Below, in pieces: positions 50,402 to 53,814 of a stretch of 54,797 nt of DNA. The notes beneath the pieces are model-generated. The model was not told the origin of the DNA. It saw only the letters and a list, made by a program, of their open reading frames with translations, and did not search any database. How positions within the stretch are numbered: the stretch's first letter is position 1; the number at the start of each line of letters is the position of its first letter. Location: contig JAEOTP010000061.1 of the NCBI GenBank assembly GCA_016839765.1, positions 1-54,797 of the forward strand. Reading direction: 5' to 3'. This stretch comes from Promethearchaeota archaeon. GTDB lineage: Archaea; Asgardarchaeota; Lokiarchaeia; Sigyniarchaeales; SOKP01. The position numbers were made by a program, and so were the translations under genes.

Positions 50402-50911
50402 ATGAAAAAGAAAATTCTTATTTTACCATTATTAGCTCTTTTATTGTTTATTTGGGCGCCTTCAGTACAAGGATATGAATACTCTGATAATATTAATGAA
50501 GGTATTTCCGTTTATTATCTAACAGCTCTGGATGTGGGAGAGAGTATTGAAGTAAATGTAACCCACTTAGGGGATGGTAATTTTAATTTTACGCTCTTCC
50601 TTTTTGATGAACGACCTTTAGAGTCATATGTTAATTTCGATAAAACCCTTAACAAAGAAATCTTTAACGTTGCTATTAATTATAATTTAGATGATAACCC
50701 TTATCTATATTTTAACGCTTCTGAATCCAAAATTTACTATTTTCAGCTTATATTGCTTGATAATGGTCCAGATACATTTTTAGTTTATAGTGATAAGGAA
50801 TTAACTCGGTATTACCTCCCTATAATTCCAGGATATAACTTGCTTTTATTGGGTCTTATGATTCCTTTAGTTTCTGGATTATTAGTGCTCAAATGTAAGA
50901 AGAAACTTTAA
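50402..50911 (+). CDS. Secreted surface protein with a C-terminal IPGY-TM-basic sorting signal (Loki-CTERM/PGF-CTERM-like)
   Basis: Signal peptide MKKKILILPLLALLL..., C-terminus IPGY + hydrophobic helix + KCKKKL. Confidence 0.75.
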   Translation: MKKKILILPLLALLLFIWAPSVQGYEYSDNINEGISVYYLTALDVGESIEVNVTHLGDGNFNFTLFLFDERPLESYVNFDKTLNKEIFNVAINYNLDDNPYLYFNASESKIYYFQLILLDNGPDTFLVYSDKELTRYYLPIIPGYNLLLLGLMIPLVSGLLVLKCKKKL

Positions 50912-50927
50912 AATAAATGTACTTTTT

Positions 50928-50960
50928 TAATCGAATAATAAATAATCGAATAATAAATAA
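50928..50960. repeat. Tandem 15-bp duplication TAATCGAATAATAAA x2
   Basis: Exact copies at 50928-50942 and 50943-50957 between convergent genes. Confidence 0.7.
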
Positions 50961-50990
50961 ATTATATATTCCTCAACTTTTTAATTAATT

Positions 50991-53392
50991 TCATTCCGAA
51001 AAAATTAGTGTAAAGGTATCCTTTAATTTGCTATAAAATTCGTTTTCTATTAAGCGATATTTCATTAATGCTTGAATATCTGATATCTCAAATTCTAACT
51101 CGCTTGGTAGATTAGTTTCTTTTAAATAGATAGCAATGAATTTTTTTTTCTTTTTCAGTGCAAAACTAATCTCTTTTCTTACCATCTCTGAGACGATGAT
51201 TTGAGGAGTTATAAAAACTAGAAATACGCGACTTCGCTCTAAATTTTGAACAATTGATTTTTTCCAGTTTTCACTGATGGGAATTCCTTCATCATACCAA
51301 ATATTTATACCGTTTTTATTAAGATAGTCAATTATCGGATAAACTTGAAGTCTGTCTGTGTGAGAATAACTGACAAAAACAAACGGTTCCTCCCCTTTAT
51401 ATGCCTTAAATGGCATCTGAAATTGCTGAGGATCCGAAAGAAAACTTTCAGAAATTAATTCCTCAAGAGAAGCCGTCTCATTTACTTTTATCTCTATATT
51501 CTTTTTTCCTGCATCTTTTAGTATTTTCATAATATTAGGATCTTTTCTAACTGTTTCAGAAAAGTGGATTAATTTCTGCCGAGCGCTATAGGACTGCCCT
51601 TGGAAAATATAACAAATGGAAAAAGAATCGACTGGTGTTATAAGCACTGTGTGTTGACCGAATTTCACTCGATCAAATGATTCAGAAAGAATCTGGTCGC
51701 AAAATGTATTGCATGAGGATAGAAATTCACTAAAATAGGTGCTATCAATTGTTAAATCAGCAGTAAACGGATTAGATAATAAAATTTTCCCATCTTTTGA
51801 CATAACAGTAAGCAGTACTGGCTGCTCAGCTTCCAATTTGGGGGATTTCACTAATCTCTTTTTTACCATCCTCTCCATTTGTTCATTTAAGCGTGATAAT
51901 TCTATACGTTCAGCCAAGGATGCTTTCGATTCTTTTAAATTCTCCCAGATTTCTAGTTGTTTAAGTAATTCATCATGCTCATTTGAGATTTTAATTACTA
52001 GCAATTTAATTCCATATCTTTCAGCAATCTGCTGGCCTTGAGTAAATAATCGTCGAGCTTCTTTCAAATCCAACGATAACAAAGCCAACTTTGCTTGTAA
52101 AAGGTAAGTTTCTCCAATAAGCCAATACGAATGCGATTTTTCAGCAAGTTCTAACAGTTGACCAAGGAATTGGTTTAACTCATCCAACACAATTAGGTCA
52201 TTAGTCATGCGTAACTCAGTTAGGAGCAATTCACATAAATTAATTAATGCTGTATACCTAACATCATGAGTTAAATTCTCATTTTCAAGGAGTTGTATTA
52301 ATATTTCTTCAGCTTTACCTCGATCGCGAGCTCTAAGACTTGTTTTCAATAATAGAGCCTTATCAAGAAGATGCATTAAATCCATTTCCTTGTTTTTTAA
52401 TTGACTGTTCAATCGCTCCAAATTGTTAAGACTTTGCTGCGCTCGCTCAAGATATCCCCTTTCAATTAATATTTGAATTAAAAAGTCGTGGTTATTAGCT
52501 AGGTTTCTTAAAGCTCCTAAACCACGGTTTAGTCCCATAGCTTGTTCTATACACTCTAACGCACGATCCAAATCTCCGTTGTTTTTATAATCAATAGATA
52601 AATTGTTAAGAATATCTGCCATACCATATTTATTGTCAAGTTCCTTGAAAAGTTCTAAACCTTGTTCATTAGTTTTTATAGAACGATCTGCTTCCCCTAG
52701 AGAACTAGTTATAAGCGCCATAACCTGAAAACTAGATGCGATGTAATATTTTTTACGACTTTCTCTAGCAAGAGATACACTTCGCTCGGAATATTTTAAG
52801 GCACGATCCATTTCACCTTTAAAAATCAATAGATTCCATGCCATCTGATCAAGAGATTCGGAAATTTCATGTCGAATCCCCAATTCTTCTCGCATTACTA
52901 AGCTGTGCTCCAAATGTTTTAATGCCAGATCTGCGTCATCTGGATCTCTTCTGTAATTGTAAAAATATCCTTTTATAAAAGCTAAATAAGCTTCTCTTTG
53001 CTTGTAGGCTCTTTTTAATTCATGTGGAATTGTTTTTATTAATTCTTCTCCATGCTTAATCAAATAAAAAGCCTTATCAAATTTATTAAGCCTTACTAAT
53101 GTATGCGTCATTATAAGTAAGTTGTCGACTATAAAGAGATTATTTTCCCGTTCTCTGCTTTCTTTATACATGGGTTCAGTATGTTTAATAAGCTCTTTGA
53201 GCTTCCCTTGCCAAAAAAAAATTTGACATTGAAGTAAATGACAGGATGCTTTATCATGATGGTTGAGCCCTTCCTTCTGCTCGAAATTATTCAAGAGTGT
53301 GAGAGCCTCATCGAGTTTACCTTCATCAATGAGTTTTTCTGCTCGAATTACTTCTTCAGGGTTTTTTTTTCTATTAATTGTTCTTCGTCCAT
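50991..53392 (-). CDS. TPR-repeat protein with a longin-like domain and C-terminal TIR domain; 5' end frameshifted at an A9 tract
   Basis: Multiple TPRs, alpha/beta segment EQPVLL...ICYIFQGQSY, TIR FVFVSYSH.D...IWYD...EMVRKEI; ATG 53392 is one base out of frame with the long ORF. Confidence 0.85.
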
Positions 53393-53814
53393 ATTTAGTA
53401 TATACCTTTGTTATTCATCGTAAGAGAGATAAGATAAATTATGGCTTAGCTATTTCTTTTTTGATTTTTCTCCAATTTCAACTATTTTTTCTTTTTCCTT
53501 ATATGGTTTTGCAGGTTTTAAATAATCATTTGGAACATCGCACACCTAACATGCGTTTTTTAAATTAATCTCTTGTTTTTAGAATATATAGTAATAATAT
53601 TATTAGGTGATTTATAAATCATGTATGACGAAAATCGTCGCTGTTAAATTTAAATCCTTTTTCCTTTTTCGTAATTTCAATCTCATTTCTTGTCTGAGAA
53701 TTAACAAAAACCATGTAATACGTTGATCCTTGATCGATTTCCATCACATAATTTTAAATTCAATTCATCAATCCCCTAACTATCAAATTATACAGAAAAT
53801 TAAAGTGAGATAAA

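Follow-up and report, generated by a model that had tools for sequence, protein, structure and literature searches.

A TPR–longin–TIR gene family of Promethearchaeota as the candidate sensor-and-signal half of a Thoeris-like pathway, with a probable orphan copy beside cdhD

Introduction

Does a protein that places a TIR domain behind a helical-repeat arm and a trafficking-type fold act alone, or does it signal to a second protein? The question is raised by a gene on the minus strand of the window, i.e., the whole stretch of 54,797 nucleotides analysed here, which comes from a Promethearchaeota archaeon of the Lokiarchaeia. An earlier note had proposed a sensor, adaptor and effector in one chain, comparable in its logic to SARM1 or NLR receptors. 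According to the reading preferred here, which is given a probability of about 55%, the proteins would supply both sensing and signal production in a Thoeris-like pathway of one family of Promethearchaeota (Lokiarchaeia), the window's copy being an orphan.

Domain architecture

The long frame of the gene extends from 53414 to 50994 on the minus strand (807 codons, P0001), and the TPR–longin–TIR order is borne out by Pfam, structure modelling and fold searches. Pfam recognizes TPR_12 (E 1e-11), TPR_MalT and TIR_2 (E 5.7e-18) in the gene product, and the full model (pLDDT 86) consists of a helical solenoid, a mixed domain and a TIR domain. The solenoid, announced as about 490 residues long, comprises about 500 in the model (51861–53360, minus strand); it is variable, and is the probable sensor arm. 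It superposes on the solenoids of APC, Rap, NprR and LGN, the Z scores of 24–26 with the peptide binders Rap, NprR and LGN reflecting a likeness of fold, not of ligand.

The middle domain is left nameless by sequence searches alone, since hmmsearch against the PDB returned nothing below E 0.69 and Pfam, over 59 members, only Fuz_longin_1 (E 0.05) in two of them; a fold search was thus needed. Folded alone (pLDDT 78), the domain shows a beta-beta-alpha-beta-beta-beta-alpha-alpha-alpha topology, with five strands and three helices. Among 48,161 chains, its best match is the VAMP7 longin (Z 12.5, rmsd 3.4, 122 aligned residues), followed by AP and COPI subunits, TRAPP and Sec22; the top 24 structural matches are all longins, and Foldseek is concordant. 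The longin fold suspected earlier is therefore supported by topology and Z score, its size being about 128 residues (51824–51441, minus strand) rather than 110. A roadblock identity is disfavoured by lower scores (Z 8–9 versus 11–12.5 for longins) and by the presence of the third helix. Prediction of a longin homodimer gave a score of 0.26, which speaks neither for nor against such a dimer. The model and Pfam show helical repeats, longin and TIR alone, with no STAND P-loop NTPase, and neither ARM nor SAM domains are present according to Pfam and to fold searches of the arm and middle domain.

The TIR domain (50994–51413, minus strand) belongs to a PFxAYxGD clade according to Pfam and the homologue alignment. 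The SYSH, WYD and VRKEI motifs singled out from the sequence could be located at 51371, 51299 and 51182, respectively.

The partner gene in relatives

In relatives, TPR–longin–TIR genes form arrays of one to four, directly followed by a gene of RelA/SpoT–TPR–SLOG type. The representative partner (P0270, L033:12435-14441) is a protein of 669 residues made of a RelA_SpoT domain, in which all the synthetase motifs are kept, TPR-S-like repeats and a C-terminal SLOG-type domain. The Pfam LSDAT SLOG family is matched weakly by 17 of 17 partner C-termini (best E 6e-6), most of them below the Pfam cut-off, and weak TRPM2 matches are also observed. The sole PADLOC match of the partner is to PDC-S33, in the N-terminal region identified as RelA_SpoT, and none of the known Thoeris effector types (SIR2-SLOG, TM-Macro, caspase, ThsF-L) is recognized. 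Among the 21 loci of the TIR-side search with a visible 3' end, the partner lies directly 3' in 11 and is absent from that position in 10. The family-level mark of Thoeris, a TIR gene beside a predicted reader gene, is thus observed in 11 of the 21 loci, and the earlier remark that no partner defence gene is adjacent stands for the window and fails for the family. The partner was not found in five of the 11 fusion-bearing genomes searched, some of which are 94–98% complete.

The association also holds from the partner side. Where the partner gene occurs without a TPR–longin–TIR gene, another TIR or a DUF4062 gene adjoins it or lies at most two genes away in 11 of 13 assessable loci, these alternative TIR genes carrying NosD-membrane, WD40, helical or other N-terminal parts. 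Such adjacency would be expected by chance in about 1% of cases (seven TIR genes in about 3,000), although the counts overstate the linkage because the genomes, and thus the loci, are kin. SLATT genes are found in two loci and a HEPN-MNT pair inside two arrays; most neighbours of the family have housekeeping functions and do not make up classical defence islands.

RyR domains are appended to some partner homologues (within P0271–P0326), and a longin-like domain (hhalign 59%) forms the C-terminus of some others, from a sister genus. A GC-rich and probably bacterial locus (L069) aligns an RyR gene, a TIR-WD40 gene, a RelA/SpoT–TPR–SLOG gene and a TrkA_N gene in one row.

A possible sequence of events can be drawn from this arrangement. 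A viral or stress ligand would bind in the TPR groove, and the TPR–longin–TIR proteins would then cluster. The clustered TIR domains would cut NAD+ and make a cyclic ADP-ribose isomer, which the SLOG domain of the partner would bind, switching on the alarmone synthetase. Alarmone synthesis would halt growth, with a presumed antiviral role. At about half of the family loci, the context favours such signalling to a separate SLOG effector over a one-protein killer of the SARM1/NLR kind: the sensor–adaptor–TIR logic proposed earlier is retained, and the one-protein action is not, for the half of loci with a separate SLOG partner gene. A broader version, held more tentatively and at somewhat less than even odds, would be a receptor-array immune system in one family of Asgard archaea, in which numerous recombining TPR–longin–TIR sensors, together with TIR receptors of membrane and other types, feed a single cyclic-ADPR-type signal to a SLOG-gated RelA/SpoT enzyme, with the longin chassis as a scaffold.

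The TIR active site and the search for a reader

The VRKEI glutamate (E748 of P0001; 51171–51173, minus strand) is kept in 120 of 121 homologues and aligns, as had been anticipated, with the catalytic glutamates of AbTir (E208), BtTir and Cat1. The AbTir E208A variant is inactive, and an aromatic ring at the AbTir W204 position is required for ADPR cyclization (bioRxiv 10.1101/2022.05.07.491051). This position, four residues before the glutamate (Glu-4), is a tyrosine in 107 of the 121 homologues. In the window's copy it is a methionine (51183–51185, minus strand), and the aromatic residue associated with cyclization is thus lacking. Tyrosine is found there in 26 of 27 partner-adjacent TIR domains but in only four of eight from genomes where no partner was found; the other four, including the window's, have Met, Thr or Asn and lie on separate branches. 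This pattern hints, from the alignment, that the window's copy is an orphan that drains NAD+ alone or is decaying.

The genome itself, 96% complete, yielded no RelA/SpoT or LSDAT gene. It contains six further TIR genes (on contigs C65, C18, C86, C1, C84 and C30), with no SLOG reader found, and two SIR2-TPR proteins (C79:23384-26281 and C6:80483-84574). A TPR-S match was considered as a possible reader and rejected, as it corresponds to a SIR2-TPR protein. The STALD search has no bearing on this genome, no match having been obtained in any control genome either.

These observations are the main arguments for a one-component NADase, in which the ligand-clustered TIR would drain NAD+ without a second protein, as in SARM1 or Avs. 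The lack of a detected reader in a nearly complete genome, the methionine where cyclizing enzymes keep an aromatic residue, the SIR2-TPR proteins of the same genome and the purifying selection on the TIR (see below) are all consistent with it. However, the Met-type TIR also occurs in a partner-linked array (L033), Tyr-type TIRs are also found in partner-less genomes, neither a SAM nor a STAND domain is available for assembly, and the majority Tyr type stands before a SLOG reader. As an account of the family, one-component action is thus rather unlikely, although the window's copy and other partner-less members may work in this way.

Arm exchange on a conserved longin–TIR end

The same genome carries, on contig C63 (L001:10377-12350), a TPR–longin paralogue devoid of TIR. 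Compared with the window's gene, it shows 89% DNA identity over the arm and 34% protein identity over the longin, dS being as low as 0.15 for the N-terminal arm but reaching 1.45 for the longin. A CGAAnTTCG motif of this paralogue is absent from the window. In the longin tree, the TIR-bearing genes form a single clade (100/99), whereas a tree built from the final 180 residues of the helical part scatters them, with at least seven changes needed, and places the window's gene with two TIR-less genes. A single TIR clade on the helical tree is rejected (AU p 1e-6), and no correlation is seen between the pairwise identities of the arm and those of the TIR (Spearman about 0). Taken together, the trees, the AU test and the uncorrelated identities indicate that arms have been exchanged on a conserved longin–TIR end, the direction being left aside as both trees are unrooted. 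The trees, the dN/dS ratios and pairs within arrays were relied upon because the region used in the search (330–789) accounts in part for the higher C-terminal identity seen in the first homologues. Judged by these comparisons, the window's gene is a recent chimera, with an arm sister to the TIR-less C63 paralogue and a longin–TIR end from another clade; the C63 gene itself is a possible exchange partner. The dN/dS ratio is 0.02–0.18 for the TIR and 0.3–0.75 in most TPR comparisons, rarely exceeding 1, and the TIR of the window's gene is still under purifying selection.

In one homologue (P0056), the TIR changes mid-domain to the sequence type of another family, which suggests recombination inside the TIR. 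That second family (L008, L009 and L011) combines the same PFxAYxGD-type TIR with a different N-terminus bearing a Cys/His (SWIM-like) motif, and is situated between pyrK and an Elp3-like gene.

Distribution of the chassis and of its outputs

All homologues with names are from Asgard archaea, mostly labelled Promethearchaeota. The longin profile is matched by 1,159 representatives; of the best 150, 136 stop after the longin, nine carry a TIR and five have other tails, such as a RING-like finger, a membrane segment or a nitrilase. The tails of P0223, P0176, P0247, P0262 and P0260 are a RING-like finger, a hydrophobic multi-helix region or a kinase-like plus nitrilase region. Since 136 of these 150 lack any C-terminal output, the TPR–longin chassis must have a TIR-independent role. 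The longin is most likely a structural hinge of a chassis on which different outputs have been fused. The TIR fusion, surveyed among the paralogues as the earlier note had advised, was found in eight of 42 congeners and, among 301 genomes drawn from the phylum, in this one family alone.

The chassis without TIR also brings forward a cell-internal role in nutrient or stress signalling, in which the TPR arm would sense peptides or protein partners like Rap, NprR or LGN and the longin would bind a small GTPase, the response being produced by TIR and alarmone synthetase together. TIR-less TPR–longin genes occur almost throughout the order, often in tandem, the arm superposes on the peptide binders named above, and Asgard longins occur fused to two-component signalling domains (bioRxiv 10.1101/2020.10.19.343400). 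Near the family, small-GTPase motifs number 16 in 488 kb, compared with 39 in 3.3 Mb for the whole genome, a modest excess of about 2.8 times. No such gene or motif was found within the window, however, and none is conserved beside the TIR form, and the engagement of small GTPases by the longin, as put forward earlier, is not supported. The shared helical folds reveal no function, and the patchy presence of the fusion among congeners, the arm shuffling, the tandem expansion and the SLATT and HEPN-MNT neighbours are typical of conflict systems. Internal signalling is therefore regarded as improbable, and an immune-type role has gained support from the arrays, the shuffled arms and the partner genes; the window's copy itself is frameshifted at its 5' end, and no cognate reader was found in its genome.

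The window's copy: insertion, frameshift and fate

The gene lies in a lineage-specific insertion (about 50930–53615) between a conserved 169-aa ORF and cdhD, and no signal-reader gene stands beside it. In the 16 congeners where both flanks are visible, the ORF is directly beside cdhD in 11 and separated from it by other inserts in five, none of the 16 having the window's gene at this site. A contig of another study joins across the insertion. The insertion is marked by neither terminal repeats nor a transposase; a weak AT-rich inverted pair is all that was seen there. Just 3' of the stop codon and close to the insertion's left edge lies a 15-nt tandem repeat (50923–50958). The 169-aa ORF (50402–50911) has hydrophobic ends and no Pfam match. 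In most congeners it is a single-copy gene flanked by dapF and cdhD, followed by a gap that accommodates different inserts. The segment 53625–53900 matches C64:773-1049 at 82%, where the region upstream of cdhD and the beginning of that gene occur a second time.

The interval 53392–50991, previously taken as a single reading frame, is 2402 nt long, and the frame opened by its natural ATG (53390–53392, minus strand) differs from that of the remainder of the gene and closes with TAA after 14 codons. An A9 run (53362–53370, minus strand) is one base short of the A10 that would keep the frame. A similar N-terminus is in frame in the homologue P0019 and in the paralogue L015. The A9 run appears without a gap in contigs of three runs (X1, X2 and X4), all from one study; a 95%-identical relative in a contig of a second study (X5) has one extra A, which restores the ATG frame, and a paralogue of another genome is likewise one base longer. 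The 5' frameshift is thus probably real in the sampled population. An assembly error is unlikely given the agreement of three runs, although these belong to one study, which may be the source of the assembly. A dedicated phase-variation switch is unsupported, as runs of at least nine A are common in the genome, whose long ORFs (2.2 Mb) contain 217 of them. The A9 run is compatible with an A-AAA-AAA slip site, and slippage, either transcriptional or -1 ribosomal, would be required to make the full-length protein; otherwise, the product would start at ATT 53381 or at TTG 53294, shortened by one helix. The latter, the first standard start in the long frame, is the one chosen by the ORF caller (767 aa). 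No RNA dataset was among those listed as carrying the sequence.

Could the gene simply be a young pseudogene, whatever the function of the family? The frameshift carried by the sampled population, the solitary insertion into a genome in which no reader was found, and substitutions at several conserved TIR positions (e.g., C728S and F760I) speak for it, whereas the remaining 789 codons are open, slippage or the in-frame ATT and TTG starts may rescue expression, a relative has an intact frame, and intact relatives carry the Met-type TIR as well. Decay into a pseudogene thus deserves to be taken seriously while being the less probable outcome. The window's copy is probably an orphan of the family pathway, either a plain NADase or decaying, and, if active, would most likely just consume NAD+. 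It is in any case a poor representative of its family.

Comparison with known systems and significance

Type I Thoeris associates the TIR protein ThsB with the SIR2-SLOG protein ThsA, and type III several TIR proteins with a SLOG effector (bioRxiv 10.64898/2025.12.03.692087). The family resembles both in placing a catalytic-Glu TIR beside a SLOG-containing reader, with several TIR genes per reader. It differs in its sensors, of 790 residues with TPR and longin parts where ThsB is small, and in its partner, whose SLOG belongs to the LSDAT (TRPM-like) clade and whose output is a RelA/SpoT synthetase; the window's copy also differs in having no reader. No RelA/SpoT effector is present in the text and supplements of that Thoeris survey (bioRxiv 10.64898/2025.12.03.692087).

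SARM1 and C. elegans TIR-1 share the succession of a helical-repeat arm, a middle domain and a C-terminal TIR (TIR match E 0.011), but with ARM instead of TPR and SAM instead of longin, with no evidence of homology outside the TIR; the archaeal family is also multi-copy, with shuffled arms. Plant TIR-NLRs and bacterial Avs/TIR-STAND-TPR proteins are comparable by their variable repeat sensors, tandem arrays with sequence exchange and conserved TIR, but here the STAND NTPase is lacking and the TIR stands at the C-terminus. The full three-helix longin fold (Z 11–12.5) is common to the family, to eukaryotic longins (VAMP7, AP sigma/mu, TRAPP, Mon1-Ccz1) and to Asgard longin/roadblock proteins, whereas the family's longin has only about 10% identity to known ones and no Pfam longin match of note, and is fused between TPR and TIR.

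Nucleotide-based conflict systems combining TIR with SLOG, TPR-S and SLATT are said to have been predicted by Burroughs and colleagues of the Aravind laboratory in 2015 and 2020, reportedly with TIR beside LSDAT SLOG, TPR-S and SLATT domains as in the present loci; the papers defining these domains may anticipate the TIR–SLOG–RelA link. We know of no longin-bearing Asgard sensor. No paper combining Asgard, TIR and longin came up in the literature searched, and the passages found in two Asgard defence surveys do not mention TPR or longin-type TIR sensors. An Asgard virus is described with a Tad2-like sponge whose target is not known (PMC13700489).

The family is thus judged to be a variant of TIR–SLOG signalling, new in its sensor architecture and in its predicted effector, and real at the family level. 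If the proposed pathway is true, TIR signalling would be tied to an alarmone second messenger in archaea, as a new type in the closest archaeal relatives of eukaryotes, for which few descriptions of Thoeris-type systems exist. It would also mean that NLR-like diversification is achieved through swapped arms in proteins lacking a STAND domain, and that a eukaryotic-signature longin domain is employed outside trafficking, in a two-gene system that is directly testable in E. coli and in vitro.
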